Source of the DNA: Candidatus Omnitrophota bacterium
GTDB lineage: Bacteria; Omnitrophota; Gorgyraeia; Gygaellales; UBA12090
Length of the DNA stretch: 64,000 nt
NCBI GenBank assembly: GCA_030674475.1
Contig: JAUSCZ010000017.1
Span: 46,264-110,263 of the forward strand
Direction: 5' to 3'
Below the pieces are notes generated by a model. It worked only from the letters and a program-made list of their open reading frames with translations. It made no database searches and was not told the DNA's origin. Shown piece by piece: positions 1 to 34,296 of the stretch. How positions within the stretch are numbered: position 1 is the first letter of the stretch; each line of letters starts with the position of its first letter. Both the position numbers and the translations under genes were made by a program.

Positions 1-1228
1 CATGCACCCCATAGGGAACAAAATCCACCCATGATACGTCCTTATAATCATCTCCGAAATGGTCCTTAAATATTTCTGTTCCAGGATACGGAACAAGCTT
101 ATTAAAAAAAGCCAAGGTCGGAGAAATACGACAAGCAAAATCAATAGTTTTATTTATAGTTTCTTTAGTGTCTCCTTTATTGCCAAATATAAAATATGCC
201 TGCGTTCTTAATCCTCCTTTTTTAGCAAGGCCTATCGCGCGCTCAATCTGCTTTATACTATTGGCTTTCCTCATATTTTTGAGAACCACTTCATCTGCGG
301 ACTCTACGCCAAAACCTACACAATAACAGCCGGCCTGCCGCATTAAAGAAAACAATTCGGCATCCACTTTTGCCACCTGGGAAAATGCAAACCATTCTAT
401 CTTTAATTTTGCATTAATAATTTTACGACATGTTTCTTTCGCTCTATTTATATCAAATGTAAAGGTATCATCCTGGATTAAAATATGATTAATTCCATAT
501 TCTTCAACAAGTTGCTTTATCTCTTTCAGAACATTATCCGGACTTCTGGCGCGAAACTTTCCGCCCAAGGTAAGCTTTGACGCACAAAAAGTGCACATAA
601 AAGGACAGCCTCTACTAGTAATTATTGTTGCCGTTTTTCCTTTACGAAAATTAAAAGTATGCGGCCTATAGAGCGTTAAATCTACCAAATCTCGAGCAGG
701 AAACGGCAAACTATCTAAATCTTGAATAGCCTCTCGCGGAGATGTCCTAAATGGCTTATTTTCCTTAAGAAAACAAATTCCTTTGATATTATCTAACGCT
801 TTTATATTTCCCTCTAAGAAGCGGCACAACTCAAGCATGGTAAATTCTCCCTCGCCGATGCAGGTAACATCAAAAGATTGAGGATACTTTTCTAAGATAT
901 ACTCCGGCAAAGAAGAAGCATGTATTCCGCCTAAGGCAATAAAAATATTCATATTTTCTTTAATCAACTTTGCTATCTTAAGGGCATTTTTAAAATCAGG
1001 CGTAGTCGCGCTCATACCCACGAGATCAGGATTAAATAATTTAACCTTCTCCAGAATATCCTGAGAGCTAAAACCCTGCACTTCCGGGTCTAGTATAGAT
1101 ACGACATGTCCATTCTCTCTTAAAAAAGCGGCAATATAACCTAACCCTAAAAGAAAATAATTACCCGCGGCTAATTTCATCGGCCCATAGACGTCTCGAT
1201 ACGGCGCTTTTATTAATAAAACTCTCAT
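1..1228 (-). CDS. B12-binding radical SAM protein (partial; C-terminus runs off window start)
   Basis: Minus-strand translation from ATG (cat at 1226-1228) gives MRVLLIKAPYRDVYGPMKLAAGNYFLLGLGYIAAFLRENGHVV... with an N-terminal B12-binding-like domain and an rSAM cysteine motif, TSRGCPFMCTFC. The ATGA overlap with the stop of the downstream GT2 gene supports operon packing. Not in the ORF track because it is truncated by the window edge. Confidence 0.8.
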   Translation of the reverse strand, partial: MRVLLIKAPYRDVYGPMKLAAGNYFLLGLGYIAAFLRENGHVVSILDPEVQGFSSQDILEKVKLFNPDLVGMSATTPDFKNALKIAKLIKENMNIFIALGGIHASSLPEYILEKYPQSFDVTCIGEGEFTMLELCRFLEGNIKALDNIKGICFLKENKPFRTSPREAIQDLDSLPFPARDLVDLTLYRPHTFNFRKGKTATIITSRGCPFMCTFCASKLTLGGKFRARSPDNVLKEIKQLVEEYGINHILIQDDTFTFDINRAKETCRKIINAKLKIEWFAFSQVAKVDAELFSLMRQAGCYCVGFGVESADEVVLKNMRKANSIKQIERAIGLAKKGGLRTQAYFIFGNKGDTKETINKTIDFACRISPTLAFFNKLVPYPGTEIFKDHFGDDYKDVSWVDFVPYGVH

Positions 1229-1908
1229 CTAAACTTACACCTCAATATAGCCAATAAAGAAGTTATTCCTACTGTCCAATGCAACTTCTTGCCTTCCTGG
1301 TAATTTCTGGGATTATAGGTTATAGGAATCTCTAAAATCTTAAATCTATTCTTAAGAATAGAGGCCGTAAGTTCAGCGTCGAAATCAAATCCAGAACATC
1401 TAAATTGCATATTTTTTATTATTTCAGACTTAAAAACCTTATAGCATGTTTCTATGTCAGTAAGGCGACAGCTAAATAAAATATTCGCTGCCGTCGTTAC
1501 CAGCCTATTGCCTAAGTAACTGATAATATTTGTCTTTCCCCTTCCCCGCAGAAATCTTGAACCGTAAACCACGCTAGCCCTGCCTTCTAAAACCGGCTTT
1601 AACAAAAACGGATAGTCTGCCGGATTTATTTCCAAATCCGCGTCTTGAATTAAAATTATATCTCCGCAAGCTAAAGCAAATCCGGACCTTAAAGCATACC
1701 CCTTGCCATTTCTTTTTTCTTCAAAAAATATTTTTATATCTGTCCGGCGTATTCCTCTTAAGATTTCTCTTGTCCCGTCGGTAGAACAACCGTCAACTAT
1801 AATTATCTCTTTCTTAATTCCTATATCTACCCTATCAATTTTATCCAAGACTTGAAGTAGACTATCTTTTTCATTATAAACCGCCATAACTATTGAAAGT
1901 GTGAACAT
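1225..1908 (-). CDS. Family 2 glycosyltransferase (polyprenyl-phosphate sugar transferase-like)
   Basis: MAVYNEKD...IIIVDGCSTDGT...LIQDADLE motifs are typical of GT2 (DPM1-like). Confidence 0.8.
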   Translation of the reverse strand: MFTLSIVMAVYNEKDSLLQVLDKIDRVDIGIKKEIIIVDGCSTDGTREILRGIRRTDIKIFFEEKRNGKGYALRSGFALACGDIILIQDADLEINPADYPFLLKPVLEGRASVVYGSRFLRGRGKTNIISYLGNRLVTTAANILFSCRLTDIETCYKVFKSEIIKNMQFRCSGFDFDAELTASILKNRFKILEIPITYNPRNYQEGKKLHWTVGITSLLAILRCKFR

Positions 1909-1932
1909 TTTTTCTAATATTTATTTCTATAA

Positions 1933-2646
1933 TTACCAAATAATCCTTTTACGGATATATTTATTATTATGCAATTCTTCAAAATGCTGTAATTGCTCCA
2001 GTCCCAGCCAATATTCCTTTATAAGATAGGCGCCTATTGGCTGATTTTTCAATAATAATTTATTTATCAAGTTAGGCATAGTGAAGAATGTATTAGGTGG
2101 CACCTCTTTGATCACGCTTGCTTTAATTATATAAATACCAGCATTTATAATGTTAACTGATACCGGTTTTTCCGTAATTGCCTTAACTACTCCATTTTTA
2201 CTATCAATAAACCCGTAGGGCTTCTCTTCTTTAATCCGCTTAACTCCGATAGTAATCTCATTTTTCTTTCTCTTGTGATAATCCAGCATCTTTAGAAAAT
2301 TCAAATTAGTGAATATATCCCCATTCATTAAAAGGAATGACTCGTCTTTCTTGAATTTTACTTTTTCTTTCAAACACCCCAATGGACCTGCCGTGCCGGA
2401 AGGCTTACTCTCTTCTAAATAAATAATACGCACTCCGTATTGAGAACCATCGCCGCAATACGTCTGAAGCATTTTAGACTTATATCCTACCGCTAACACG
2501 AATTCCCTAAAACCGTTTTTTTTCAATTGGGTTATTATGATTTCTATTATGGGCTTTTCTCCAATAGGCAAAAGCGGTTTTGGTATAGAAAACGTGAATG
2601 GCCTTAATCTTATTCCCATTCCTCCTGCTAATATAACAGCTTTCAT
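1933..2646 (-). CDS. Sugar-phosphate nucleotidyltransferase
   Basis: N-terminal MKAVILAGGMGIRLRPFT...PKPLLPI is the NTP_transferase signature. Ends with TAA. Confidence 0.75.
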   Translation of the reverse strand: MKAVILAGGMGIRLRPFTFSIPKPLLPIGEKPIIEIIITQLKKNGFREFVLAVGYKSKMLQTYCGDGSQYGVRIIYLEESKPSGTAGPLGCLKEKVKFKKDESFLLMNGDIFTNLNFLKMLDYHKRKKNEITIGVKRIKEEKPYGFIDSKNGVVKAITEKPVSVNIINAGIYIIKASVIKEVPPNTFFTMPNLINKLLLKNQPIGAYLIKEYWLGLEQLQHFEELHNNKYIRKRIIW

Positions 2647-3317
2647 TTCTCTACTTTACAGGCTACGAGGTAATTTCCCGGCACAATGAAGCTCCCCATT
2701 TTATATACTTTTTCAATCCTAAAACCACAAGAATAGAGTAATTTATTTATCATTGACCGCGTATAATAGAAATTCGGGCATTTTCTTTTAGCCAGCCAAA
2801 TCATTCTCAGGGGAGTCATTAATGTCCATTTCACAGGAAAAGAAATTATAGCCCTGCCATTAAGGACATTGCGAATCTTAGACAAAAAGGCTTTTGGTTC
2901 ATATATATAGTCAAATATCCCACAAGCAATAACAATATCAAATCGTTTCTCGAAGTTTTTTTTCATGAAATCTGCCATTTCGAATTCGCATAACTTGCTT
3001 AAACCTAAAGCGTCTGCCTTTCTTTGAGCTATTTCAATCATTGAGGCAGACATATCTACGCCTAATACTGACTCCGGTTTTTTTTGGGCCAGATCTACAA
3101 CATATCTTCCTGGGCCGCAACCGATATCAAGGATATTCTTACCTTCTACATTCCCGCATAAATCTATGGTTAATTTCCTGCGTTTTTCCAGTATTGCGTT
3201 GCGAAAAGTAATATCTATAAGCTTATAAAGCCAAAAATCCTGCCCTCCTTCATATACGGCCTCAAAATCAGAAGAAACGCTTTCAAAGTGTTCTAAAACT
3301 TTATCCTCTGCCTCCAA
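2643..3317 (-). CDS. Class I SAM-dependent methyltransferase
   Basis: Motif I ILDIGCGPGRY and acidic post-I residue; 4-nt overlap with neighbours. Confidence 0.75.
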   Translation of the reverse strand: MEAEDKVLEHFESVSSDFEAVYEGGQDFWLYKLIDITFRNAILEKRRKLTIDLCGNVEGKNILDIGCGPGRYVVDLAQKKPESVLGVDMSASMIEIAQRKADALGLSKLCEFEMADFMKKNFEKRFDIVIACGIFDYIYEPKAFLSKIRNVLNGRAIISFPVKWTLMTPLRMIWLAKRKCPNFYYTRSMINKLLYSCGFRIEKVYKMGSFIVPGNYLVACKVEK

Positions 3318-9134: not shown

Positions 9135-10565
9135 CTATTTACTTCTGGCGAGCATTTTTGAAGAGAGCATCCCTACCGTAGATATGAACCCTTCTTCTCT
9201 TAGATGCTGTTTTACCATAACATATCTTCTTTGCCAATTCTCCACAAATTCAGAAATACAAAACATAATACCCAAATTCCGGCGCGCGGTCATCTCCGCT
9301 ATCTTTTTCATCTCTACTAATTCATTATCCGAGAAATCTGTCAAATTAACTAAAAATGTCGTCCGCATTTCACCTAAACTTTCTAAATACCTATCCTCGT
9401 CATGCCTAAGCCTGCCCATCGTCTTTGCGATAGAGTATAACTCTGTACCTGGATATGGCGTAGCATAGAAGAAACGATAAATAGGAAGGCGCGTCCTTTT
9501 TATAAAATCAAGCGTCTCTTTTATTGTTTCTTTCGTTTCTCCCGGCATACCGAAAATAAACGAACCGGATAATTTTATCCCTGCTTTACGCGTCATTTCT
9601 ATAGCTTCTTTTGCTTGCTTCACCAAAACGCGTTTTTTCATCCTGTCTAACGCTGTCTGCGCTCCGCTTTCAAAACCGTAACTAAGCTCAACGCAACCGG
9701 CCTTACGCATCTTCATAAGCAAACTCTCATTTACCAAATTTACCCTTCCGGAAGCAGACCATTTTATATTTATCTCTTGCGCCAACATCAAATCGCAAAA
9801 TTCCATCACTTTCTTTTCATTAATCAGAAACAGATCGTCTGAAAAATTTATGAAATTAACATTGAATCTGAGTTTTAACTGTTTGATTTCTTCAACGATG
9901 CTCTTTGCAGACCTTGAATACACGTTCCTCCCAAATGGATGAGAACAAAACGTACACTCATAAGGGCATCCCCTAACAGAAGATATGTTCATTTGACGCA
10001 GGCCAAAGCTAGTTGACGAAATAATTGAACCATTTAAATAAACTTCTACCGGAAATAAATCCCAGGCTGGAAAAGGAAGTTCATCCAAATTGGCTATCCT
10101 TTCTCTGCTGGAAGTCCTAACTATATTGCCGTTATCTTTATAAAAAATACCCCTGACATTCCTTAAGCTTCCATTGCATTTTATTGTATGCGCCAAATCC
10201 TTAACCGTCAGCTCCCCTTCGTCTATAACCGCTATATCAACATGGCTATTGGATAGCAATAATTCGGGATGAGCGGTTGAAACCATATTACCGGCTATTA
10301 TGCGGGAATTAGGTTTATATTCTTTAATCAGAGCCGCCAGCCACTTTACGTATTTATACGTAGAGCTCAAGCCCCCGATACCTGCAATGTCAAAATCGCT
10401 GTCCCGTACTACACGCTCAACTTCATCTTCAGAATAACCAAATCCATTAATATCTAAAACGCTTACGTCAAAACCATCCCCCCTAAGAACACTGGCTATA
10501 TAACCTAAGCCTATTGGAAATGTGGTCGGTAATCTGCATTTGGGATTAATTAGCAATATACGCAT
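9135..10565 (-). CDS. B12-binding radical SAM protein
   Basis: N-terminal B12-binding-like domain (MRILLINP...), rSAM cluster motif RGCPYECTFCSHP, and a C-terminal rSAM TIM barrel. Confidence 0.8.
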   Translation of the reverse strand: MRILLINPKCRLPTTFPIGLGYIASVLRGDGFDVSVLDINGFGYSEDEVERVVRDSDFDIAGIGGLSSTYKYVKWLAALIKEYKPNSRIIAGNMVSTAHPELLLSNSHVDIAVIDEGELTVKDLAHTIKCNGSLRNVRGIFYKDNGNIVRTSSRERIANLDELPFPAWDLFPVEVYLNGSIISSTSFGLRQMNISSVRGCPYECTFCSHPFGRNVYSRSAKSIVEEIKQLKLRFNVNFINFSDDLFLINEKKVMEFCDLMLAQEINIKWSASGRVNLVNESLLMKMRKAGCVELSYGFESGAQTALDRMKKRVLVKQAKEAIEMTRKAGIKLSGSFIFGMPGETKETIKETLDFIKRTRLPIYRFFYATPYPGTELYSIAKTMGRLRHDEDRYLESLGEMRTTFLVNLTDFSDNELVEMKKIAEMTARRNLGIMFCISEFVENWQRRYVMVKQHLREEGFISTVGMLSSKMLARSK

Positions 10566-19808: not shown

Positions 19809-20549
19809 TCACTCATTATGATAATGAAATATATAACTGCTCTCTTTAACCCTAAAACCCGCCTTTTCATAAAGCCTCAATGAAGGGATATTGGCTATCT
19901 GTGTCCCCACTCTCAATAATTTTTTACCCTTAAAATTATTTTCTGTGAAACTTATCATCGCGGAAGCAACGCCTTTGCCCTGATAAAGGATATCTACGGC
20001 AATAAGGTCTATCAAAATAGCATCATCCTTATTAATAAGCTGCAGGAATCCTATGGGTTTTTCTTTGTCTAAAGCCACAACCATCGCATTGCCGCGGATA
20101 CCCTTAAAAAAATTGCGCACCCATTCCACCTTAACAGAATCAGCGATATCTTTAGAAATTAAAGGGTCCCTATGAAACCTGCTGTATTTAAAAGCGGAAC
20201 CGGCGATCTTTTCCAGTCGGGGTTCATCACCGACAACGGCAAATCTTGTTATCCAATTTTTAACGAGTTGAGCGGATGGAAAAATTTCCTTTTCCAATAC
20301 GATATTTGTATCTATCAAATTAAAGCCTGATTTTTCCAATGCCTTAATGCTCTTAATGGACGCAGGTAAAACCTTGGCGTAAATAAAAATAGGCTGTTTC
20401 AGAAATTTTTCAAAAATGCCGTATTCTTTGCTTTCTTTGTCTGATAATGCCGCCGCTAAAATATCGTCCATACTCAAACGATAGGTTTTACGCCCAAGAA
20501 TTTGCGCCAGCCACACATCCTCTATAAAGTTAAGCTGATTATTATCCAT
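19809..20549 (-). CDS. GNAT family N-acetyltransferase
   Basis: C-terminal LYEKAGFRV motif and acetyl-CoA-binding-like QGKGVASAM. Confidence 0.7.
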   Translation of the reverse strand: MDNNQLNFIEDVWLAQILGRKTYRLSMDDILAAALSDKESKEYGIFEKFLKQPIFIYAKVLPASIKSIKALEKSGFNLIDTNIVLEKEIFPSAQLVKNWITRFAVVGDEPRLEKIAGSAFKYSRFHRDPLISKDIADSVKVEWVRNFFKGIRGNAMVVALDKEKPIGFLQLINKDDAILIDLIAVDILYQGKGVASAMISFTENNFKGKKLLRVGTQIANIPSLRLYEKAGFRVKESSYIFHYHNE

Positions 20550-20568
20550 CCATGCCCTTGCTATTTAA

Positions 20569-21627: not shown

Positions 21628-21629
21628 AT

Positions 21630-22775
21630 CTACCTCACTTTGATTATTGCTTCTTTAAGACATTTAACCATATACTCCATATCTTCCGCGTTTAAATGCG
21701 GCCCGACAGAAAGAGCGATAGAACTGTTACTAATTATAGAAGCCACAGGGAAACTATTCTTTTTGTAACCATATTTATTTTTATAATATGTAAAATGAGG
21801 AACCGGCTTAGGATAATAAACACTGGTGCCTATACCCCGCTCTTTAAGATAACTGACAATCTCAAAACGTTTTTTAGATATGCTATTTCTTAAAATAACG
21901 GACAGGCAATAGTAGCTGCTTTGATAATCGCCTCCCGAGGACTTTAAGAGGGATAGCTCATCCATATCTTTAAGGCCGTTACTCAATAATTCGTAATTTT
22001 CTTTTCTTATTTTTAAAAACCCGTTGACGCGCTTTAATTGTTCAATACCTAAAGCTGCCTGCAGCTCATTCATTCTATAATTAAAGCCCAGCATATCTAC
22101 GTCGTATATGCCGGGGGTTTTTCTTTCACCCACATGCCTGTCTACGCCGAATGCTTTCTGCCTTAATATCTTTCGCGCTATTTTTTTATGCTTGGTAAGC
22201 AGCATGCCTCCTTCGCAGGTGGTAAAGTGCTTAACCGGATAGAATGAAAAACACCCCACATCTCCGTGTAAACCGGCATGCCGGCCTTTAAAATAAGTAC
22301 CTACCGCCAAAGCGCAATCTTCCACGACGAAAAGATTATGTTTTGCGGCAATTTTATTAATCCTTTGCATATCTACCGGCATACCCAAGAAATGAACAAT
22401 CGAAATAGCCCGGGTGCGCCTGTTGATATTTTTCTCTATCTGGTTTATATCTATATTACCGGTTCTTTCTTCGGCATCTATAAATACGGGTTTAGCCCCG
22501 CAGAATTCTACGGCATGCGCAGTCGCCACATGCGTCTGCGCGGGGACAATTACTTCTTCTTTCGGCTTAAGACCAAGATAGAAATAAGATAAGTGCAGTG
22601 CCGCGGTGCAAGATGAAACCGAAACAGCGTATCCGCCGCCGGTGAAATTTGTAAATTTCTCCTCAAATTCTTCCGCGCGGGGCCCATGCACAAGAATACT
22701 ACCGCTTAGGACTTCTAAAACCGCTTTTTTTTCTTCTTCTTTAATAATAGGCCTGCCAAAAGGTATTGTTCTCAC
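21630..22775 (-). CDS. DegT/DnrJ/EryC1/StrS family PLP-dependent sugar aminotransferase
   Basis: N-terminal IPFGRPII.EEEKKAVLEVL and the overall pattern of the family. Confidence 0.85.
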   Translation of the reverse strand: MRTIPFGRPIIKEEEKKAVLEVLSGSILVHGPRAEEFEEKFTNFTGGGYAVSVSSCTAALHLSYFYLGLKPKEEVIVPAQTHVATAHAVEFCGAKPVFIDAEERTGNIDINQIEKNINRRTRAISIVHFLGMPVDMQRINKIAAKHNLFVVEDCALAVGTYFKGRHAGLHGDVGCFSFYPVKHFTTCEGGMLLTKHKKIARKILRQKAFGVDRHVGERKTPGIYDVDMLGFNYRMNELQAALGIEQLKRVNGFLKIRKENYELLSNGLKDMDELSLLKSSGGDYQSSYYCLSVILRNSISKKRFEIVSYLKERGIGTSVYYPKPVPHFTYYKNKYGYKKNSFPVASIISNSSIALSVGPHLNAEDMEYMVKCLKEAIIKVR

Positions 22776-23788
22776 TTATTAACCTCCTGAATATATTCTA
22801 CTTTAACTTTATTTTTTTCCCCGGCCGCTTTTTCTATGGCAAAACAAACTGACATAGCATCAAAAACTTCCTGATAGGGTATAGCTCCGGTACTTTTGTT
22901 TATAATTCCGTCAATAAAGTCATAAATTAACGCTCCTTTATGGACCCCGGGATAGTCTTCATAAATCTTTTCCGGCTGTCGATCGGCGTCTCGCGACTCA
23001 AAATATAATCCACACTCCAGGCCATTGACAAATGTCCCCTTAGTGCCATAAACCGATAAAGAATGAAAATGCGGAGAAACACACCCCATATTCACCGCCA
23101 ATTTTCCTACAATGCCATTTTCAAAGCGCAAGATAGAAACAACCATATCGTTATATTTAAAAAAACCGCTTGAAGAAATATTATTGCCGTACGCGGTAAC
23201 CTCTATTATTTTTTGTCCCGTAAGCCATAAAAGTAAATCTATTATATGTATGCCGCCGCCATAAACCACGGAATAAAAATCTAATTTTCCGCGCCATCCA
23301 TGCGTTATCTTATTTAACCGTCCATAATTATAATCTCCTTCGACATAAAATATGCCGCCCAGTTTTCCATTTTCAATTAATTTTTTTAAATAAATAAACC
23401 TGGGGCATTTACGCAATATTAAATTCGAAGAAAGTTTCAAATCTACCCTGCTTCTTAAGAGAGAATAGATATGCCTGGCTTCTTCTTCATAAAGACAAAG
23501 AGGTTTTTCCACAAAAACATGCTTATTATTTTTAATCGCCTGGATAATCTGCGGATAATGGTAGTTATCATAGGAAGCTACTGAAACTACGTTAATTTCT
23601 GGGTCATTTAATATATCATCCGGGTTATCGGTAAGCCTTATCCGCGGGTATTTCTTACGGGCTTCTTTTAATTTTTCTTCCGATAAATCACATAAAGCGA
23701 TAACCTGGCATCCGGGATGGCTCTGATATCCGGCCATATGCTGCTCCCCTACCCCCAACCCTATAATTCCGGCTTTTAATTGTTTCAT
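22772..23788 (-). CDS. Gfo/Idh/MocA family oxidoreductase
   Basis: N-terminal Rossmann fold (AGIIGLGVGEQH) and an EKP motif. Confidence 0.8.
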   Translation of the reverse strand: MKQLKAGIIGLGVGEQHMAGYQSHPGCQVIALCDLSEEKLKEARKKYPRIRLTDNPDDILNDPEINVVSVASYDNYHYPQIIQAIKNNKHVFVEKPLCLYEEEARHIYSLLRSRVDLKLSSNLILRKCPRFIYLKKLIENGKLGGIFYVEGDYNYGRLNKITHGWRGKLDFYSVVYGGGIHIIDLLLWLTGQKIIEVTAYGNNISSSGFFKYNDMVVSILRFENGIVGKLAVNMGCVSPHFHSLSVYGTKGTFVNGLECGLYFESRDADRQPEKIYEDYPGVHKGALIYDFIDGIINKSTGAIPYQEVFDAMSVCFAIEKAAGEKNKVKVEYIQEVNK

Positions 23789-23796
23789 TTTATCAA

Positions 23797-24495
23797 TTAG
23801 GCTGGCTGCCTATCAGCTATATCCTTATATATTCTAATAAGTCCTTTAAGGCCGCAGCTCCAATGCGGCTTATCCATATGGCGCACAATCGATGTTATTC
23901 TATCCATGTCAGCCTTCGTATCTACGCATAATCTTATCAAATGATAATCCTCTGATGATATGAGATTAAATATCTTATAATTATTTTGATTTAGATAAAA
24001 AAATCGCGTGACATGCTCGAAGTCCTCCAACTCTTTCATTTCTTCATACCCTTTCAGGAAAATATCCGATTTTAAAAGCTCAACAGACTGACCCTTAGGA
24101 TATGTGCGCTTTAGTACGTTTGTTACAATGTCAAAATCTCCACCTTTAAAAATATCTATTGCCTCGTTTATCAGGCAGGGATCAAGCAAAGGACTATCCG
24201 CGGATAACCTTAAAAAAGCGTCAAAATTATACATGCCTAACACCTCTTTAAATCTTGAAGCAACATTAGTAAGGTGCCCGCGATAAAATGTTATCCCCAG
24301 CCCTTTGCAGAATTCAACTATTGAATTATCATTTTTCTCATCAGACGTAGCTACTACTATATTATCCAAGTACTTGCATTGCCTTATCCGTTCAATCATA
24401 TATTCTAACATCGGCTTGCCGCAAATAGTGCTTAGGACTTTGCCGGGAAGCCTTCGTGAGCCCATCCTTGCCTGAATAACCGCGCCTATATTCAT
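23797..24495 (-). CDS. Acylneuraminate (nonulosonate) cytidylyltransferase family
   Basis: AVIQARMGSRRLPGKVL N-terminal motif of the CTP_transf_3 family. Confidence 0.8.
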   Translation of the reverse strand: MNIGAVIQARMGSRRLPGKVLSTICGKPMLEYMIERIRQCKYLDNIVVATSDEKNDNSIVEFCKGLGITFYRGHLTNVASRFKEVLGMYNFDAFLRLSADSPLLDPCLINEAIDIFKGGDFDIVTNVLKRTYPKGQSVELLKSDIFLKGYEEMKELEDFEHVTRFFYLNQNNYKIFNLISSEDYHLIRLCVDTKADMDRITSIVRHMDKPHWSCGLKGLIRIYKDIADRQPA

Positions 24496-26786
24496 AGTTT
24501 AAATAATACCCTAAAGATAAAACCTTCAAATTTAAACCTATCCGCGTAATTTTCAGGACGGACATAAAGCGCGGTATCGCGAACAATATTTAAAAAATAA
24601 AATAACTTTTCATCTGATTTAACCAAAGAAAGCCCGCCCAAGAAAGAACTTAACTCAGAAAAATCATTTTCCAGAAATCTAATCTTTGAAAACCAATACT
24701 TGCTCTCATCTATATTTCCGGAGAGATTTTTCAAAAATGATAAATAGAACAGACACTCCATATATTCACCTATCTCTTTATTCATCATTTGGGTAATATA
24801 GATAATCCGCGGATGTTCCACAAGGTTATATTCGTTACGATAATATAGAGATAGCTCGCGCACCCAATCATTTAAATCCCTTGCGCCTGTAATCCAAAAA
24901 AGGTCGTCTAATTGTAGATTCCCCAATATAAAATTTAGCAGGTACGGCCTCTGGGATGCCGCGCGGGTTAGTAATTTTTCCGCTTCTTCGTATTTTCCAA
25001 GCCTTAAATTTTCTCGGCCAGAATAAAAATCAATTAAAAAACGGCTTCCCGGCTCTCCTTCGCGGTTAAATACCTCGTAATCTTTAAAACCATAAGTTAA
25101 GTTATTTAACTTATGGGCATCTGCCGGCTGGCCTACCACCACATCCAGAAAGCGCTTATTAAACCTTTGCTTAAAGACAAAATTGATATTATCATTATAC
25201 CGATCAGCCGCGGAAAAACTTCCTTGATTGGTGAAAACAATAGGATTAATATTGTATAAATTTATGGTTTGCGCAAAATTATTGAGTTTGTATTTACTAC
25301 TGATGTCTTCTCTTACCGTATCCGCAATCTTTATATAGTCATATATATAAAAATTATTAGCTGTCTTGCCTCTATATAATGCTATCTTTATTGCCGCCAG
25401 GTTAGGCATTAAAAGGCCCGCGAATATTAATATCATAATAAAATTTATGAAGGCCTTGGGCCTAAATAAAGTTGTAATTTTTGCATAAAGGTAGTCAAAT
25501 ACCGAACAAAAGATAAGGCAAAAAAGCGCGGATAGATATACAAAGTATCTGGACGCGGTGGGATTCCATAAATAAAGATATATCAAGCTAAATATATACC
25601 AGGTAACTAACACCGCATTCTGCCTTTGCTTCAAAATATATGCCTTGGCGAATATGAACGCCATGAATAAAAATAGCAAAATACTGAAAACACTAAACCC
25701 CGCGGGAATAAAATGATATGGACGGAACGAATCAATAGACATTGCCGACTGCAAGGGGAATAAAAAGCTATTAAGCATACCCATAAATGGCACAATAAAA
25801 TTGTAAGGAATCAAAATCTTTCCAAAATTACCTGAAGCTATAGCCAGCATTACCGCTAAAAAAACCGTTGTCAAAAAAAGTAGCTTTGCCCTATCGCTAA
25901 GCATGGGCCTTTTTTGATGCCTTAAAAACAGTCTTAACAGAAAAATAAACAGAATCCCTATGGATAATAATATAAAGAAATTTATTATAAGGTTGTTATT
26001 GCCGAAATTAATAAATGTTATTCCCTTGCTGTTTAAAATTGAAAAAACCGGCCGTAAAAAAGAACCAAATCTTACATCGCCGCTTACTATCCTCAGTAAA
26101 GGATAAAAGAGGTAAATAAAAAATAGCGGAAGCCAAATATCGTATTTTCTAAGCATATCTTTGCGGTCTTTTGAACAAACTAAAATATGCGTCATTATCA
26201 TCGCGGGCAATATTAATATACTTAGCCGGCAGAAAGACGATAATAACGCTACCAATAAAGTCAGAAAGAAAAAGCCATGATATTTCTGTTGGGAAGAAAT
26301 TAAATTATTGGTTTTTAAATAAAATATTAATCCTGAAAGTATAAAAAAAACTACTATGAGATGCTGAAAAGCCATAGGCCACATATACGCATGAAAATGC
26401 GCAAAGAGCATAAGATACATCAAAGATGAAAGAAAGCTGACCCTGGAATTTAGTCCGAGATTTTTTGCCAAAAAATACAACAAAATAGAACAAGAAATAT
26501 GGAATAACATAGCCAGATAAATAAAACTTTTAGCTAAAGGACCGAATAAAAACAAGGTAACCAGCGTATAAATCTTTACGTCGGGAATCTCAAACCATAG
26601 ATGCAGAGGGTTTAAAACATACCAGGCTAATTTCACTAAAGAAAACCCTTCCGTATCTCTGAACAAAACCGGGATAAACCACAAAAGATCCTGCTCAAAA
26701 ACACTCCCTTTTATTTCATTACGAAGTATGATTAAGAATAAAAGTAAAAATACGCAATAAATTCCCAGACGTAATATTTTCGTCAT
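24492..26786 (-). CDS. Large polytopic membrane protein with C-terminal soluble (TPR-like) domain; possible GT-C transferase/polymerase
   Basis: 764 aa. The N-terminal ~450 aa are strongly hydrophobic with many TM helices. The C-terminal ~300 aa are soluble. Confidence 0.4.
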   Translation of the reverse strand: MTKILRLGIYCVFLLLFLIILRNEIKGSVFEQDLLWFIPVLFRDTEGFSLVKLAWYVLNPLHLWFEIPDVKIYTLVTLFLFGPLAKSFIYLAMLFHISCSILLYFLAKNLGLNSRVSFLSSLMYLMLFAHFHAYMWPMAFQHLIVVFFILSGLIFYLKTNNLISSQQKYHGFFFLTLLVALLSSFCRLSILILPAMIMTHILVCSKDRKDMLRKYDIWLPLFFIYLFYPLLRIVSGDVRFGSFLRPVFSILNSKGITFINFGNNNLIINFFILLSIGILFIFLLRLFLRHQKRPMLSDRAKLLFLTTVFLAVMLAIASGNFGKILIPYNFIVPFMGMLNSFLFPLQSAMSIDSFRPYHFIPAGFSVFSILLFLFMAFIFAKAYILKQRQNAVLVTWYIFSLIYLYLWNPTASRYFVYLSALFCLIFCSVFDYLYAKITTLFRPKAFINFIMILIFAGLLMPNLAAIKIALYRGKTANNFYIYDYIKIADTVREDISSKYKLNNFAQTINLYNINPIVFTNQGSFSAADRYNDNINFVFKQRFNKRFLDVVVGQPADAHKLNNLTYGFKDYEVFNREGEPGSRFLIDFYSGRENLRLGKYEEAEKLLTRAASQRPYLLNFILGNLQLDDLFWITGARDLNDWVRELSLYYRNEYNLVEHPRIIYITQMMNKEIGEYMECLFYLSFLKNLSGNIDESKYWFSKIRFLENDFSELSSFLGGLSLVKSDEKLFYFLNIVRDTALYVRPENYADRFKFEGFIFRVLFKL

Positions 26787-28075
26787 AATTTATACTTGGC
26801 GCAGAAATCCGATACTACATTAAGTATGTAATCCAACTCTTTTTCTCCCATATCTTGATGTATGCCTATATGCAAGCCATTATTGCCTATATATTCGGCA
26901 TTGGGAAATTGGCCTAACTTATAGCCTAAATATTCAAAGCCGGGGCATTGGGTAGGCATGGATAAAAATAAATTACGAGTATCTACGCCGTTTTCTTCCA
27001 AATATGAGACCAAATCATCTCTGCTAAATTTATTTTTTTCACCCAGAACAATCGGAAAGGCATGTGGGCCTATCTTTTCATGGGCTTCTTCTTTAATAGT
27101 ATATAAATACGGCTCAAACTCTTTAAATTTGTCCAACATATATAATAAATTATTGCGTCTTTTTTCTAAAATCTTATAATATATTTCTATATTCCCTAAC
27201 CCGATAGCCGCCTCCAATTCGTTCATCTTGCTGGAAAAACCGATACGCTCAAAAACAAAACGTATATCCTTATCTTTATCTTTGCCGTATTTAAACCTCT
27301 TATCACAATAGCCGGAATTAATATTGAGTATACAACTTTCACACTTGCAAGCCCTTCCATGCGCCCTTAAAGACCTCAAAACCTCGGCAAAATCAGCTTT
27401 GTCCGTAACCACCATACCGCCTTCGACAGTTGTAATCATATGTGCTACGTAGAGACTAAATGCCGCCATATCGCCTAAAGTGCCGATATTCTTGCCCCGA
27501 TAAACTGCCCCGTATGCCTCTGCCGCATCCTCTATAACGAAAAGTTTATGTTTTTTAGCAATGTCATTTATTGTATCCATCTCCGCCGGTTTACCCATAA
27601 GATGGACAGGCATTATAGCGCGCGTCTGTTTAGTAATTGCTTTTTCAATCCGGGAAACATCGATATTTAAAGTATGCCTTTCCACATCTACAAATATCGG
27701 CTTAAAACCGGCCTGCAGGACAGCGTTGCCTGTCGCCACAAAAGATAAAGCGGGCACTATTATTTCATCACCCCTTTTCGCTCCATAATCATAGAGAACG
27801 GCCAATGCTAACGCATCCGCATCTGTGCCGCTGCTTACCGATACCGCTTCTTGCGCGTCTATAAGTTTAGCAAATTTTTCCTCAAATTTACGCACGTATT
27901 TTCCGCTGGAAACCCTTTCAGAATCTAATATTTCTCCAATCAGTTTTTTTGAATATTCAGTGATAGCTATGGTTCCAAATGGAATTCTCATTTTCTGCAT
28001 GACTCTTTTGCCCCTTTCCTCTCCAGCCATCTCAAAATTTTGTTTACTAAGCCCTTCTCGGGGTTTGCTCCGCAT
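26783..28075 (-). CDS. DegT/DnrJ/EryC1/StrS family aminotransferase
   Basis: The true start is probably an internal Met (MQKMRIPFG...). The overall pattern of the family is present. Confidence 0.8.
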   Translation of the reverse strand: MRSKPREGLSKQNFEMAGEERGKRVMQKMRIPFGTIAITEYSKKLIGEILDSERVSSGKYVRKFEEKFAKLIDAQEAVSVSSGTDADALALAVLYDYGAKRGDEIIVPALSFVATGNAVLQAGFKPIFVDVERHTLNIDVSRIEKAITKQTRAIMPVHLMGKPAEMDTINDIAKKHKLFVIEDAAEAYGAVYRGKNIGTLGDMAAFSLYVAHMITTVEGGMVVTDKADFAEVLRSLRAHGRACKCESCILNINSGYCDKRFKYGKDKDKDIRFVFERIGFSSKMNELEAAIGLGNIEIYYKILEKRRNNLLYMLDKFKEFEPYLYTIKEEAHEKIGPHAFPIVLGEKNKFSRDDLVSYLEENGVDTRNLFLSMPTQCPGFEYLGYKLGQFPNAEYIGNNGLHIGIHQDMGEKELDYILNVVSDFCAKYKL

Positions 28076-29974: not shown

Positions 29975-31108
29975 TCACTTTATAAGATTTCCAACAAGCC
30001 CTGTCGAGTATTTAGCAATTGCGAGAGAAGAAGTTAATCCTGGAGATTCTATTCCTATTAAATTTATAAAACCTGTCAATCCTTTATCCGTTTCTTCTTG
30101 TATAATAAAATCCCTAAAATCCTCACCTTCTCTTTGAAGTTTTGGTCTAATACCAGCAATATCCTCGTAAAGATCGTCTTTATTTATAAAAGGAAGCAGC
30201 CTATTAGCCGCAGAGTAGAAATTATTTTTCTGAGAGCTATCCACAGAATAATCCTTATTTCTATTGTTTAGGTATTTCTCATCAGGCCCAAGGCGCAAAC
30301 TTCCACACAGATCCAAAGTAGCATGCACTCCTAAACCAGCGCTTTTTGGCTTGGGGACAGGGTATACTAATCTTTTAATGAAATGGCTTTTTGAGTGATT
30401 AACTCTGAAATACTGCCCTTTACAATAATGAAGCCTATAGTTAAAATGCTCTATATCTATACCCCCCATCTCAGCAATACGATCAGAATCCAATCCTGCG
30501 CTATTTATCACAACCTTTGTATTCAAAAATATGGTTTCATTGTTATTTCTAACCATTACAATATACCCGTAAACGTTCTTTTTGATATCAATTACTTCAG
30601 AAACATAAGACATTATCGCGCCGTTGTTTTGAGCAGTATCTTGAAAAAGTTGCATTAATTTATGAGAATTAATAATGCCGGTTGATGGAGAATGAAGCGC
30701 TGCCACTCCATTTACGCTTGGTTCAATTTTTTTTAAATCAGCCGCATCTATCAGCCGCAAATCATCAACGCCGTTATCTTTGCCTCTTTGAAACAACTCT
30801 TCAAGCGCGGGGATTTCATCTTTTTCACTGGCAACAATCAATTTACCGATTTTCTTAAAGGGTATATTGTTCTTCTGGCAGATTTCATACAATAATGATC
30901 TGCCTTCTACACACATTTTTGCTTTTAAAGTATCTTTAGGATAATAGATGCCCGCATGGATTACTTCGCTGTTACGACTACTTGTTTCTTGACCAAAACT
31001 ATTATGTCTTTCTATGACAACGATTCCTTTGTATTTCTTTGATAATTCCGCGGCTATGGCCAATCCGATTACCCCGGCGCCAATAATCAAAATATCAGCT
31101 TCATCCAT
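29975..31108 (-). CDS. FAD-dependent oxidoreductase (LhgO/DAO family)
   Basis: DILIIGAGVIGLAIA dinucleotide-binding motif. Confidence 0.75.
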   Translation of the reverse strand: MDEADILIIGAGVIGLAIAAELSKKYKGIVVIERHNSFGQETSSRNSEVIHAGIYYPKDTLKAKMCVEGRSLLYEICQKNNIPFKKIGKLIVASEKDEIPALEELFQRGKDNGVDDLRLIDAADLKKIEPSVNGVAALHSPSTGIINSHKLMQLFQDTAQNNGAIMSYVSEVIDIKKNVYGYIVMVRNNNETIFLNTKVVINSAGLDSDRIAEMGGIDIEHFNYRLHYCKGQYFRVNHSKSHFIKRLVYPVPKPKSAGLGVHATLDLCGSLRLGPDEKYLNNRNKDYSVDSSQKNNFYSAANRLLPFINKDDLYEDIAGIRPKLQREGEDFRDFIIQEETDKGLTGFINLIGIESPGLTSSLAIAKYSTGLVGNLIK

Positions 31109-31832: not shown

Positions 31833-31834
31833 CT

Positions 31835-32827
31835 TTAAATCTGCTGCGGGTTATAATAAATCACCTGACTACCCTCATTTTCAAAACAAAATTTAACTTC
31901 CAGCAATTCTTTTAATGCCTTTTGCACTCTCCGCCGCCTTGCCGGAGAGACAAATAAAAGCATAAAGCCGCCACCGCCTGCACCTAACAGCTTTCCTCCT
32001 AAAGCGCCGTTCTTTATAGCCTTATCATATATATTGTCAATTTCAGGACTCGAGATTTTTTTGGAAAGTTTCTTCTTTATCTGCCAGGATTCGCGCAGGA
32101 GCTTTCCGAAATCAGCAATATCCCTGTTGCTGTTTAAGATATCAACGGCATGGTCAACCATATGCCGCATCGCGGTCAACTCATGCTTATTACTAGAAGT
32201 ATTCTTTATCTGGTCGGCAGCGATCTCCGATGAAAAACGAGATAGCCCCGTAAAAACCAACATCAAATTCTCCTGCAACTCCTGGATCCTTTCCTTCTGG
32301 ATGGTCACCGGCTCTGCCCGGAAATTGTGGTCGTTTAGAAAGATAATCTTATTGAAACCTCCGTAGGCAACCGCAACCTGATCCTGAGAGCCGACATTTT
32401 CCTTAAGGACATTCCTCTCTATATGTATAGCCTGTTTGGCTAAATCGTTTTTTGAGATAATATTGCCTTTTAAGGCATATAGAGAATTGAGCATGCCTAC
32501 GGTAAAAGCCGAACTCGAGCCCAATCCCGAACGCGCAGGCAAATCCCCGTCATGATGAACCTCTACGCCTCTTTGCACCTTAAATAATTTAAGAAGCGCC
32601 CTTACTACGGGATGCTGAATTTCATTAACAGATTTGACGTTTTCTATAAAAGAATAAACTATCCGGTGTTTATGTTCGAAAAAAGGAGGCAGATATCTGA
32701 TGCTTATATAACAGTATTTATCAATAGTTGTTGATAAAACGGCACCGGTATTCTCCTGATACCAGGCGGGATAGTCCGTACCACCGCCGAAAAACGAAAT
32801 CCGAAAAGGAGTTTTACTGATAATCAT
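31835..32827 (-). CDS. GHMP family sugar kinase (heptose-7-phosphate kinase HddA-like)
   Basis: TPFRISFFGGGTDYP N-terminus and PARSGLGSSSA ATP-binding motif. Confidence 0.75.
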   Translation of the reverse strand: MIISKTPFRISFFGGGTDYPAWYQENTGAVLSTTIDKYCYISIRYLPPFFEHKHRIVYSFIENVKSVNEIQHPVVRALLKLFKVQRGVEVHHDGDLPARSGLGSSSAFTVGMLNSLYALKGNIISKNDLAKQAIHIERNVLKENVGSQDQVAVAYGGFNKIIFLNDHNFRAEPVTIQKERIQELQENLMLVFTGLSRFSSEIAADQIKNTSSNKHELTAMRHMVDHAVDILNSNRDIADFGKLLRESWQIKKKLSKKISSPEIDNIYDKAIKNGALGGKLLGAGGGGFMLLFVSPARRRRVQKALKELLEVKFCFENEGSQVIYYNPQQI

Positions 32828-34296
32828 TCCAGCACCTTTCTTTTTAGCCTGGTTTTTGTCATTTCCTCAATATGGGTTCTGACCTTTTTGCCGAATTTAC
32901 TCTCCAGCATATTCAAATAACCGGGATTTTCGAAATACCGGTGAAACGCGTCATCCCTGAATTTTACGACTTCTTTCGGGTTGATATATTTCGTCGGAAG
33001 CGGAAGCATTTCGTAGGAATGTTGGGAAAACCCGTGCCACTCTTTCGGAAGTTCCCACCCCTGCCTGCGGGCGATATCGTAAAGCCTGGAGCCTGGATAG
33101 GCCATAGCGCAATAAAAATTCACGAATTCGCAATTAAGATCAATTGCCATATCGATTGTTTCCTGCATAGTCTGCACCGTATCATCGGGAAGCCCGAAAA
33201 TAAAGTTGCCTATAACCCTTATGCCTGCATCTTGAATACTCCTCACGACATTGGTTATATCTTTGACCCTCATTCGCTTAGAAGCGCCGTCCCTTACATC
33301 GGGATTTGCCGATTCAATCCCCAACGCAAGCCAATTTATGCCCGCCTTTTTCATCTTCAGAAGATTCTCCGGCTTTACTGTATCAACCCGGGCATAAACC
33401 CAGATGTTTAAGTCATAACCCTTAGCTATCAATAGATCCACTATTCTCATATAGTGGTTTTCGTCCAGGACAAAAAGCTCATCTACGATTTTTACATTCT
33501 TTACCCCGTATTTAGTTACCAATAGCCCTATCTCCTGGACTACCATTTCCGGACTCCTGTATCTTATGCCTGGCTTGCCGAAAAGGGCATTAATACAGCA
33601 AAAAACACAACTGTAGGGGCAGCCTAAGCTGGTGTATATCGCCGCATAAGGCATCCTGTTTTCTATATCGTCAAAACAATGCCAATTATGTGCCCGATAT
33701 TTTTCCATCGGCAACAAATCCCAGGCAGCAATCGGCAATTCTTCATCCAGGTTTTCAATAAGCGAGACTTTATGGTTATTTCTGATATTTCCATCTTCAT
33801 CGTAATACCATAAACACGTAATATTAGAATAAATGCCTTTCCCAGATTTTATCGCGCCAATTAACGCCATTAATGTAGCAGGGCCTTCTCCTTCAATAAC
33901 AAAATCGACTTTTTCTTCTATTAGTGTCTGTTTGGGTAGAGCGGACGGATGCAGGCCACCTATAGCGATTTTCCCGAGAGCATTCTCCTTCAACGCCTTG
34001 CAGATTTTTCCGGCAATAGTCATATTCTGCGTGGATGCCGAAGGCTGGGATCCGTAAACTATTACTGCGGATAACAGCGGGTTAATTTTATTAACCTTTT
34101 TTGCTGTCTCATCAGGTGAGAAATTCTCAGCGTTAGCATCAACGATGGCCACGTTAATCCCGCTATTCCTCAGATATGCCGCGATTACCGCAACCCAGAA
34201 AGGCGGCTCAATAGCAGAATAATCCTTTCCTAATCCCTGATAAACCTGCTTATGATCCCCCGGATTTATTAAAACAACTTCTATCTTCCCGCTCAT
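32824..34296 (-). CDS. B12-binding radical SAM protein
   Basis: N-terminal B12-binding-like domain and an rSAM cluster motif, LGCPYSCVFCC. Confidence 0.8.
   Translation of the reverse strand: MSGKIEVVLINPGDHKQVYQGLGKDYSAIEPPFWVAVIAAYLRNSGINVAIVDANAENFSPDETAKKVNKINPLLSAVIVYGSQPSASTQNMTIAGKICKALKENALGKIAIGGLHPSALPKQTLIEEKVDFVIEGEGPATLMALIGAIKSGKGIYSNITCLWYYDEDGNIRNNHKVSLIENLDEELPIAAWDLLPMEKYRAHNWHCFDDIENRMPYAAIYTSLGCPYSCVFCCINALFGKPGIRYRSPEMVVQEIGLLVTKYGVKNVKIVDELFVLDENHYMRIVDLLIAKGYDLNIWVYARVDTVKPENLLKMKKAGINWLALGIESANPDVRDGASKRMRVKDITNVVRSIQDAGIRVIGNFIFGLPDDTVQTMQETIDMAIDLNCEFVNFYCAMAYPGSRLYDIARRQGWELPKEWHGFSQHSYEMLPLPTKYINPKEVVKFRDDAFHRYFENPGYLNMLESKFGKKVRTHIEEMTKTRLKRKVLE

Follow-up and report, generated by a model that had tools for sequence, protein, structure and literature searches.

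Enzymes that couple a B12-binding domain to a radical S-adenosylmethionine (SAM) domain are among the largest enzyme groups with few known functions. GenK, GenD1 and Fms7 are cobalamin-dependent radical-SAM C-methylases of aminoglycoside sugars, Fom3 methylates cytidylyl-2-hydroxyethylphosphonate, and AprD4 of apramycin biosynthesis, a radical-SAM 1,2-diol dehydratase acting on a sugar and containing a related Rossmann domain, binds no cobalamin (PMC12931638). BchE and HpnJ are not methyltransferases, and a ring contraction of lipid-linked glucosamine has been proposed for HpnJ (PMC9204698). The sugar-acting members have so far come from antibiotic pathways; here we describe three genes of this architecture, R1, R2 and R3, in a lipopolysaccharide (LPS)-type cluster within a 64,000-nucleotide stretch (the window) of a metagenome-assembled genome of an uncultivated groundwater Candidatus Omnitrophota, and we show that such genes recur, often several per locus, in LPS-type clusters of widespread anaerobes.

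Two nucleotide-sugar pathways also bear on this locus. In Campylobacter jejuni, the conversion of guanosine diphosphate (GDP)-heptose to its 4-keto and then its 3-deoxy-4-keto form has been shown in vitro, the C3-dehydratase of HS:5 acting after Cj1427 to yield GDP-3-deoxy-4-keto-heptose (PMC10680097). YerE and ErwE are thiamine diphosphate (ThDP) enzymes that place an acyl branch at C4 of cytidine diphosphate (CDP)-3,6-dideoxy-4-keto-glucose, giving sugars such as yersiniose, erwiniose and caryophyllose (PMC9306805). We propose, with moderate confidence, that R1, R2 and R3 are tailoring enzymes of class-B architecture serving separate sugars, and that R3 belongs to a GDP-heptose branch.

Three paralogous B12-binding/radical-SAM genes in a glycan locus

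An earlier reading made from the letters alone (the sequence-only reading) had placed three such genes in the window, and the coordinates that it gave are exact:

1..1228, minus strand: R1, B12-binding-domain/radical-SAM protein, 409 amino acids (aa) visible (Pfam; CPFMCTFC)
9135..10565, minus strand: R2, B12-binding-domain/radical-SAM protein, 476 aa, MDO8748051.1 (Pfam; AlphaFold and Foldseek)
32824..34296, minus strand: R3, B12-binding-domain/radical-SAM protein, 490 aa, MDO8748072.1 (Pfam; AlphaFold and Foldseek; orthologues)

Each product has the B12-binding-like N-terminus and the radical-SAM domain announced by that reading, with Pfam matches to PF02310 (B12-binding; E-values of 4.8e-22, 3.3e-16 and 3.4e-17 for R1, R2 and R3) and to PF04055 (Radical_SAM; 9e-25, 2.1e-26 and 2.5e-21). 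Each also carries a CxxxCxxC motif (CPFMCTFC, CPYECTFC and CPYSCVFC, respectively), whose cysteines are invariant in a 78-sequence alignment and in a second alignment. Matches of this strength lie well outside what chance would give. R1 is cut at the window start and misses about 64 aa of its C-terminus, its 99%-identical full-length relative P0241 being 473 aa long. R2 and R3 are annotated by NCBI as 'radical SAM protein' only. Since the pairwise identities among the three are only 34%, 31% and 31% over about 380 aa, they are old paralogues and not recent duplicates.

The immediate neighbours had likewise been named correctly: glycosyltransferase family 2 (GT2) and NTP_transferase genes beside R1, a Wzx flippase and a transglutaminase-core gene beside R2, and a GHMP kinase and a split transketolase beside R3. 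These neighbouring sugar genes bear out the glycan-locus setting. From position 1 to about 39,000, every open reading frame (ORF) of at least 100 aa with a family match lies on the minus strand; packing is tight, overlaps of 4 bp are frequent, and the GC content is 36–43%. Between R1, R2 and R3 lie genes for polyprenyl-phosphate-sugar-synthase-like GT2s, a PMT_2-type GT-C glycosyltransferase, a GT1 glycosyltransferase, the Wzx flippase, a nonulosonic-acid set, several class I methyltransferases and heptose enzymes, and the downstream part of the window encodes two GT9 heptosyltransferases, a Wzy_C O-antigen-ligase domain, ManC and a carbamoyltransferase (Pfam). Because GT9 heptosyltransferases, Wzy_C and Wzx are present, the region of R1–R3 is part of a bacterial glycan locus of LPS/O-antigen type, which covers more than 38 kb of a single strand. 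Judged from the loci of their relatives, described below, each paralogue forms an orthologous group of its own with its own conserved neighbours, and because of these group-specific neighbours we read R1, R2 and R3 as tailoring enzymes that are each devoted to an activated sugar of their own.

Fold and cobalamin-tail motifs

Structure prediction retained the B12-binding fold that the sequence-only reading had assigned to the N-terminal domains. The AlphaFold models, made for R2 (pLDDT 93.0, pTM 0.90) and R3 (pLDDT 88.4, pTM 0.90), have a five-stranded alpha/beta N-terminal domain and align over their full length, in a Foldseek search of the PDB (E-values of 1e-16 to 1e-26), to TsrM, QCMT/MgmA (9CCB), CysS, OxsB and TokK, all solved with cobalamin. 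Compared on its own with PDB sequences, the N-terminal domain of R3 gives only a weak match to OxsB (E 0.12).

In this class the cobalamin tail is met by a Gly(-Gly) on strand beta4, a Gly-Glu at the start of helix alpha5 and a 'downstream' GxS/TxX loop (PMC9204698). We called these motifs from family-wise conservation, together with alignment to OxsB:

R1 family: beta4 GG kept; alpha5 GE kept; downstream loop GxSxT-like, kept
R2 family: beta4 G-N, as in OxsB; alpha5 GE kept
R3 family: beta4 GG kept; conserved G-P replaces GE; strictly conserved seven-residue insertion VYGSQPSASTQNM in the downstream loop

The beta4 GG is invariant in the R1 and R3 families. The R3 insertion sits in the beta3-alpha3 loop, and because the N-terminal loops of R3 are very highly conserved, we argue that its N-terminal domain is functional. 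Still, cobalamin binding looks less certain for R3 than for R1 and R2.

The R3 cassette

R3 lies in a block of genes, all on the minus strand, that comprises, from its first gene onwards:

37051..38157, minus strand: transglutaminase-core and TPR protein, first gene of the R3 block (Pfam)
36070..37014, minus strand: SDR_d, short-chain dehydrogenase/reductase (SDR) resembling the GDP-heptose C4 dehydrogenase Cj1427 (PDB match 6VO6/6VO8)
35237-36061, minus strand: split transketolase-like ThDP enzyme, N-half, TK_N (Pfam; best PDB match the split transketolase 6YAK/6YAJ)
34293-35297, minus strand: split transketolase-like ThDP enzyme, C-half, TK_C, true start probably near 35240 (Pfam)
31835-32827, minus strand: HddA-like GHMP heptose kinase (best PDB matches the heptose kinases 3K85, 4N3O and 4USK)
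31113-31832, minus strand: HddC-like nucleotidyltransferase (best PDB match HddC, 6JQ8/5XHW)
29975..31108, minus strand: DAO-family flavoprotein, L-2-hydroxyglutarate-oxidase-like (NF008726, 268 bits, cut-off 299)
29136-29849, minus strand: GT2_b, polyprenyl-phosphate-sugar-synthase-like GT2 (Pfam, NCBIfam)
28091-29101, minus strand: GDP-mannose-4,6-dehydratase (GMD)-like SDR (Pfam, NCBIfam)
26783..28075, minus strand: DegT_b, ColD/E1 (RfbH)-type sugar 3-dehydratase dependent on pyridoxal or pyridoxamine phosphate (PDB matches; RfbH 283 bits)

SDR_d aligns to 6VO6/6VO8 with 383 bits (E 8e-114, about 60% identity, residues 5-313 on 3-311), and the nearest solved relatives of the kinase are D-glycero-D-manno-heptose phosphate kinases (3K85, 4N3O and WcbL, 4USK). 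The best PDB matches of DegT_b are E1 (3BCX/3BB8) and ColD (2GMS/3GR9); it has His in place of the catalytic Schiff-base Lys (FSLYVAHMITT, against FSFYPVKHFTT in the aminotransferase DegT_a of the nonulosonic-acid genes), and the same His is found in cassette orthologues of both DegT variants. Because of the matches of the kinase, the nucleotidyltransferase, SDR_d and DegT_b, plausible products of the cassette are GDP-heptose together with its 4-keto and 3-deoxy-4-keto forms.

The first 120 database matches listed are all R3 homologues, 70-78% identical to R3. Species-representative genomes hold 182 R3 relatives, of which we retrieved 80 (49-77% identity). Orthologues at 53-78% identity occur in more than 10 phyla. 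The carriers among the 80 are anammox Planctomycetota (Brocadia, Scalindua), Nitrospirota including magnetotactic lineages, Elusimicrobiota, Omnitrophota, Desulfobacterota (Geobacter, Pelobacter), Campylobacterota (Sulfurimonas, Sulfuricurvum, Arcobacter), Lentisphaerota, Verrucomicrobiota, Spirochaetia, Methylococcales, Chloroflexota and Patescibacteria; one carrier contig is binned to the archaeon Methanoperedens.

We compared the window proteins with six-frame ORFs of the 80 R3 loci and counted partners in the 38 'well-flanked' loci, which have at least 7 kb on both sides of R3:

GHMP kinase: 33 of 38
SDR_d (36070-37014): 32 of 38
nucleotidyltransferase: 30 of 38
split transketolase pair: 26 of 38
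further B12/radical-SAM gene: 17 of 38

The usual order is (DAO)-NTase-kinase-DegT-SDR-TK_N-TK_C-R3, where NTase is the nucleotidyltransferase and the DAO flavoprotein gene, present in 13 of the 80 loci, mostly stands at the end of the NTase-kinase run. The order TK_N-TK_C-R3 is nearly invariant, with 4-bp overlaps, and in Scalindua the SDR_d homologue is fused to the transketolase N-half. GT2_b and the GMD-like SDR also recur beside R3 orthologues, the SDR especially where the transketolase pair is absent.

The R1 and R2 modules

The genes that accompany R1 and R2 are the following:

1225..1908, minus strand: GT2_a, small GT2 like AglJ, dolichyl-phosphate (Dol-P)-hexose transferase and ArnC (Pfam Glycos_transf_2; NCBIfam below cut-off)
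1933..2646, minus strand: NTase_a, sugar-1-phosphate nucleotidylyltransferase (Pfam NTP_transferase, E 1.6e-38)
2643..3317, minus strand: MTase_a, class I SAM methyltransferase (Pfam Methyltransf_31/25/11)
3301-4128, minus strand: polysaccharide deacetylase/DUF3473 (Pfam)
4143-5132, minus strand: LegB-like NAD-dependent 4,6-dehydratase (TIGR04180 LegB, 424.6 bits, cut-off 475)
5156-6457, minus strand: PMT_2-type GT-C glycosyltransferase (Pfam)
6476-7549, minus strand: GT1 glycosyltransferase (Pfam)
7622-9124, minus strand: Wzx-type flippase (Pfam)
10586-11629, minus strand: transglutaminase-core protein (Pfam)
11648-13498, minus strand: BFO_1060/TIGR04396-type glycosyltransferase, 616 aa (NCBIfam NF046086 and TIGR04396, below cut-off)
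13507..24495, minus strand: nonulosonic-acid block (Pfam, NCBIfam)

R1 orthologues, 64-72% identical to R1, always end a set made of a methyltransferase, an NTP_transferase, a small GT2 and R1 itself. GT2_a, which overlaps the start of R1 by 4 bp, is conserved beside them; in the loci L169-L171 NTase_a orthologues (60-64% identical) adjoin the R1 orthologue and MTase_a is conserved. The LegB-like dehydratase and the deacetylase/DUF3473 gene precede the set in the window and are conserved upstream of R1 orthologues. The substrate of R1 is likely to be a hexosamine derivative linked to a nucleoside diphosphate (NDP) or to polyprenyl phosphate.

The Wzx flippase lies directly downstream of R2 in all R2-orthologue loci examined (57-64% identity). 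Upstream of R2 orthologues stands a large glycosyltransferase, in most loci of the BFO_1060/TIGR04396/Glyphos_transf type; the 616-aa protein of the window is a candidate nonulosonic-acid transferase. The nonulosonic-acid block contains methyltransferases, a 116-aa ORF, an SDR and a complete set of nonulosonic-acid genes, namely a NeuB-family synthase, a CMP-type cytidylyltransferase, the DegT_a aminotransferase with its catalytic Lys, a GNAT protein, a GFO/IDH/MocA oxidoreductase, and WbuX with an AsnB-like amidotransferase. A run of AsnB, WbuX, small ORF and methyltransferase, together with NeuB and CMP-transferase genes, is often found near R2 orthologues, and the substrate of R2 is likely to be a nonulosonic-acid-containing intermediate.

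Two further observations concern these modules. Paralogous transglutaminase-core genes stand directly upstream of R2 (10586-11629) and, with TPR, first in the R3 block (37051-38157), and a similar gene occurs in the R1-orthologue locus L169. In the nonulosonic-acid block, one class I methyltransferase is split over two overlapping ORFs, 13866-14555 holding the N-terminal motifs and 13507-14019 the C-terminal part. This is a frameshift, from a pseudogene or an assembly error; a relative, L173, has a single 349-aa methyltransferase at the same place.

Further paralogues in related loci

The sequence-only reading had taken three such genes in one cluster as a sign of unusually elaborate sugar decoration. 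Such arrays are less exceptional than that would suggest: among related loci of at least 15 kb, about half hold two or more B12/radical-SAM genes (21 of 48 R3-orthologue loci and 14 of 26 metagenome loci). The metagenome scan, made with R2, returned three full-length orthologues and one short fragment, the remainder being paralogues about 30% identical; it was used only for counting multi-gene loci, and the synteny of R2 comes from separate look-ups.

Moreover, three is a minimum, because the edge of the window cuts the count short. L166, a contig from Hainich groundwater, matches positions 1-11170 of the window with 95-97% nucleotide identity and extends beyond their start. In this contig R1 is directly followed by a B12/radical-SAM gene of 494 aa, then by a 770-aa fusion of a B12/radical-SAM protein with a class I methyltransferase and, 4 kb further, by a 463-aa B12/radical-SAM gene. 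The three extra paralogues score like R1–R3 against NCBIfam. By the near identity of this relative, the organism of the window would have six such genes.

The 770-aa fusion (L166, 12976-15288) joins a B12-binding/radical-SAM protein to a class I SAM methyltransferase domain, and an R1-like protein of 700 aa, P0330, is a fusion of the same kind. These fusions, with the methyltransferase that adjoins R1, suggest a functional link between the two enzyme types. Related glycan loci also contain radical-SAM/SPASM genes that lack a B12 domain (L001, 1143-1940; L173, 3086-4207; L169, 21100-21449), so radical chemistry in such clusters is not limited to B12-type enzymes.

Points against the proposal and alternative explanations

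Several points weigh against reading R1–R3 as class-B-architecture tailoring enzymes. Firstly, no member of the three groups is characterised, and all their functions are inferred from homology and neighbours. Secondly, none of the three reaches a curated NCBIfam cut-off, and all equivalog scores are far below. Their best profiles are BchE (147-210 bits, cut-off 481.35) and HpnJ (169-193 bits, cut-off 577.6; 156-176 bits for the three L166 paralogues), behind which come PhpK/Sden_1168, ApyD, ladderane, QCMT, AprD4 and HpnR. Thirdly, AprD4 (6FD2) is the best PDB sequence match of R3 (E 1.1e-18) and is as close in fold to R2 and R3 as the cobalamin enzymes are (Foldseek); because AprD4, which has no cobalamin, is equally close, cobalamin use is not provable by fold alone. 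The Gly-Pro of R3 in place of the Gly-Glu motif points the same way, and within the window we found no gene for cobalamin biosynthesis or uptake and no B12 riboswitch. Fourthly, the heptose branch has gaps of its own. GmhA and GmhB, needed for heptose, lie outside the cassette and would have to be supplied by the LPS-core pathway; the identity of 6VO6 as Cj1427 of C. jejuni is presumed; and the transketolase pair is missing from about one third of the well-flanked R3 loci, where a GMD-like SDR often stands instead. Because these loci do without the pair, R3 needs neither the pair nor the carbon branch that the pair would add, and its target may be another part of the heptose, such as the C6/C7 side chain.

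The profile scores also bear on the chemistry. The sequence-only reading had called the three proteins class-B enzymes and had C-methylation in mind. Its class-B part stands on the two-domain architecture, and R1–R3 belong to the known class-B-like superfamily, outside its characterised families. Its C-methylase part did not gain support: BchE and HpnJ, which head the profile matches, are not methylases, AprD4 is as near in structure as the methylases are, R3 has its Gly-Pro, and the methylase models (HpnR, KedN5, TsrM, PhpK/Sden_1168, QCMT, RiPP C-methylase, the last for peptides made by the ribosome and then modified post-translationally) give at best 55-169 bits against cut-offs of 282-700. 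GenK, GenD1 and Fom3 lie outside the set of NCBIfam models matched, and profile scores stood in for a tree. C-methylation is therefore a guess, one possibility among several.

One such possibility, which we judge unlikely, is an AprD4-like role: R3 in the first place, and perhaps one or both of the others, would be a radical-SAM dehydratase or deoxygenase that works without cobalamin. A vicinal diol, for instance C6-C7 in the side chain of the heptose, would lose a hydroxyl, and the Rossmann domain would be structural or substrate-binding only. Besides the sequence match and the missing Glu of R3, this explanation can draw on the template modelling (TM) scores, since AprD4 is among the top Foldseek matches of R3 and R2 with the highest target-normalised values (0.75-0.76), and on its pathway: the substrate of AprD4 is a sugar and an SDR reductase comes after it, and SDRs flank R3. 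AprD4 and ArsL moreover fall inside the 'B12-rSAM' similarity network and yet bind no cobalamin (PMC12931638). However, the AprD4 model NF033070 (cut-off 500 bits) gives R1 119, R2 112 and R3 85 bits, less than the BchE, HpnJ and PhpK models do, and the phmmer match between AprD4 and R3 spans the radical-SAM barrel only (residues 195-428) and leaves out the N-terminal domain. That domain matches Pfam B12-binding (E-values of 1e-16 to 1e-22) and shows a weak similarity to the OxsB cobalamin domain, and the invariant GG of the R1 and R3 families and the conserved GE of the R1 and R2 families also speak for cobalamin and against an AprD4-like role.

We give little credence to a second explanation, in which R1, and possibly others, would act like HpnJ: a lipid-linked amino sugar, produced by the neighbouring GT2 and deacetylase, would have its ring rearranged or contracted, and a carbocyclic (cyclitol-like) head group would result in place of a methylated sugar. 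The hopanoid pathway contains HpnI (a GT2), HpnK (a deacetylase) and HpnJ, and the surroundings of R1, with a polyprenyl-phosphate-type GT2, a deacetylase/DUF3473 gene and the radical-SAM gene itself, parallel this set; HpnJ is also the first or second best NCBIfam match for all six paralogues. Yet the scores amount to one third of the cut-off for HpnJ, hopanoid genes are absent, and BchE does at least as well as HpnJ for R1, R2 and two of the three paralogues of L166, which makes the similarity to HpnJ generic to the clade. The chemistry of HpnJ itself has never been reconstituted.

It is also improbable that the split transketolase is an ordinary one that only supplies sedoheptulose 7-phosphate for heptose, with R3 functionally unrelated to it. 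The best PDB match of the pair is indeed a genuine split transketolase, sedoheptulose 7-phosphate is the heptose precursor, and the pair is absent from one third of R3 loci. The pair keeps the ThDP motif GDG...N (LLGDGELYEG...IDNN), the activating Glu (GIAEQN) and the equivalents of His66 and His261. Five conserved positions are nevertheless replaced (His26 by Arg, His100 by Ile, His461 by Gly, Asp469 by Ser and Arg520 by Gly), and the replacements are kept in 49 orthologues; for His100 we presume an active-site role. The other four, His26, His461, Asp469 and Arg520, are substrate-binding in canonical transketolases (PMC4601599). The nearly invariant, overlapping TK_N-TK_C-R3 order, the fusion of the N-half to a Cj1427-like SDR in Scalindua and the position of GmhA outside the cassette also speak against an ordinary enzyme. 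Judged by these residues, the pair is probably not an ordinary transketolase; its active site is remodelled, with the canonical sugar-phosphate site lost. By analogy we favour a branching role, because a ThDP enzyme beside a 3-dehydratase recalls YerE/ErwE, and the Arg that replaces His26 may bind a 2-oxo acid, as donor, through its carboxylate. Hence, of the C-methylated or branched decoration suggested by the sequence-only reading, the branched part gains indirect support for R3, whose cassette pairs a ColD/E1-type 3-dehydratase with a ThDP enzyme, and the C-methylated part does not.

Finally, it is highly improbable that R1–R3 are modifiers of lipids (lipid A acyl chains, polyprenol) or peptides that merely happen to lie in the locus: many clade members do act on lipids or RiPPs, and the ladderane, HpnR, ApyD and RiPP methylase models all score, but each orthologue has its own synteny with nucleotide-sugar genes across phyla, coding overlaps with sugar genes suggest co-translation, and the first 38 kb contain no precursor-peptide or lipid-synthesis genes (Pfam).

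Proposed pathway and chemistry

With R1–R3 read as tailoring enzymes for separate sugars, the R3 cassette would work as follows. The HddA-like kinase and the HddC-like nucleotidyltransferase would yield GDP-D-glycero-D-manno-heptose, whose C4 the Cj1427-like SDR would oxidise with 2-oxoglutarate. The L-2-hydroxyglutarate released by this neighbouring SDR would be recycled by the L-2-hydroxyglutarate-oxidase-like flavoprotein. DegT_b, as a ColD/E1-type dehydratase, would then remove the 3-OH, and the transketolase-like ThDP pair would probably add a carbon branch at the 4-keto carbon, as YerE/ErwE do. R3 would contribute one radical step on an unactivated carbon, and the small GT2 would transfer the product to polyprenyl phosphate. 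R2 would act in the nonulosonic-acid block, between the BFO_1060-type glycosyltransferase and the Wzx flippase, and R1 would close the methyltransferase-nucleotidyltransferase-GT2 set beside the LegB-like dehydratase and the deacetylase.

By analogy with the known enzymes, we infer a radical mechanism for all three. A reduced [4Fe-4S] cluster would cleave SAM to a 5'-deoxyadenosyl radical, which would abstract a hydrogen from a sugar carbon; the substrate radical would then either accept the methyl of methylcobalamin, the outcome in GenK, GenD1 and Fom3, or undergo rearrangement or elimination, as in OxsB, HpnJ and AprD4.

Our tentative, and still doubtful, suggestion for the cassette as a whole is that it encodes an undescribed pathway, present in more than 10 bacterial phyla, from GDP-heptose to a new C-branched and/or C-methylated deoxy-heptose. 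A role of R3 as a C7 methylase that would give an 'octose' of the erwiniose/caryophyllose type was considered and dropped, those sugars being C4-acyl-branched 3,6-dideoxyhexoses (PMC9306805); of that idea we retain the ThDP branching alone. If our proposal is true, R3 would be the first enzyme to bring a B12-dependent radical step into the nucleotide-sugar biosynthesis of a cell-surface glycan, and at loci with up to six such enzymes the surface sugars would reach a complexity hitherto seen only in antibiotics.

Other features of the window

A toxin-antitoxin-type island of small genes at 38900-47350 parts two glycan regions. Its members include a HEPN protein (40919-41170) with a Polbeta nucleotidyltransferase (41155-41490), an MNT::HepT fusion (43674-44519), PIN_3 (42695-43048), AbiEii (45130-45750), two DUF2442 proteins, DUF4258 with DUF433, two HTH_24 proteins, a retropepsin-like aspartyl protease (38575-38958) and a truncated papain-like fragment (41846-42130). 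The GC content rises just past the island, from about 46 kb, and TFIIE-like helix-turn-helix (HTH) matches occur among the window proteins (Pfam). An archaeal origin, which these matches and the low GC content had suggested, was rejected in view of the GT9 heptosyltransferases, the Wzy_C domain and the NCBI protein names, which give Candidatus Omnitrophota.

Two ORFs in the glycan regions, 24492-26786 (764 aa) and 61317-63497 (726 aa), have no Pfam match, and the former has no NCBIfam match either. The 749-aa ORF 55896-58145 carries, besides the Wzy_C (O-antigen ligase) domain, a GT9 heptosyltransferase domain at its C-terminus, and a NodU/CmcH-type carbamoyltransferase (59426-61360) lies near it.

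Comparison with known systems

In a full-text literature search we found no characterised B12/radical-SAM enzyme in an O-antigen, capsule or heptose pathway, and recent reviews of the class name neither a polysaccharide nor a heptose as substrate. The R3 gene set, conserved across many phyla, has apparently gone unstudied so far. It raises the questions of what the new sugar is, what role a transketolase-like enzyme without a sugar-phosphate site plays, and whether the surface glycans of uncultivated bacteria depend on B12.

GenK, GenD1, Fms7 and Fom3, compared here by description, share with R1–R3 the two-domain architecture and the use of unactivated sp3 sugar carbons or, for Fom3, of a nucleotide-activated substrate, whereas they serve actinomycete antibiotic pathways and R1–R3 lie in an LPS-type locus. 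AprD4 likewise acts on a sugar, has an N-terminal Rossmann-like domain and is the top structural and sequence neighbour in the PDB; it differs in having no cobalamin (PMC12931638), its family model is missed, and the sequence match to it is confined to the barrel. HpnJ and BchE provide the best curated profiles for all paralogues, but the scores reach 25-45% of their cut-offs and the locus has no hopanoid or bacteriochlorophyll context.

The closest relatives of the R3 cassette as a pathway are found in C. jejuni, where capsule heptose synthesis uses homologues of its HddA, HddC, Cj1427 and HS:5 C3-dehydratase components. Since the substrates of the cassette are predictable from these characterised Campylobacter enzymes, it is directly testable. 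The C. jejuni pathway has no radical-SAM or ThDP enzyme and ends with epimerases and C4 reductases; the R3 cassette, in contrast, adds the transketolase-like pair and R3 and, in some loci, the L-2-hydroxyglutarate-oxidase-like gene. With YerE and ErwE the cassette would share the logic by which a 3-dehydratase makes a 3-deoxy-4-keto NDP-sugar and a ThDP enzyme branches it at C4. YerE and ErwE are single-chain enzymes of the acetolactate-synthase type, whereas the R3 cassette has a split ThDP protein of the transketolase type, with GDP-heptose as the predicted substrate.

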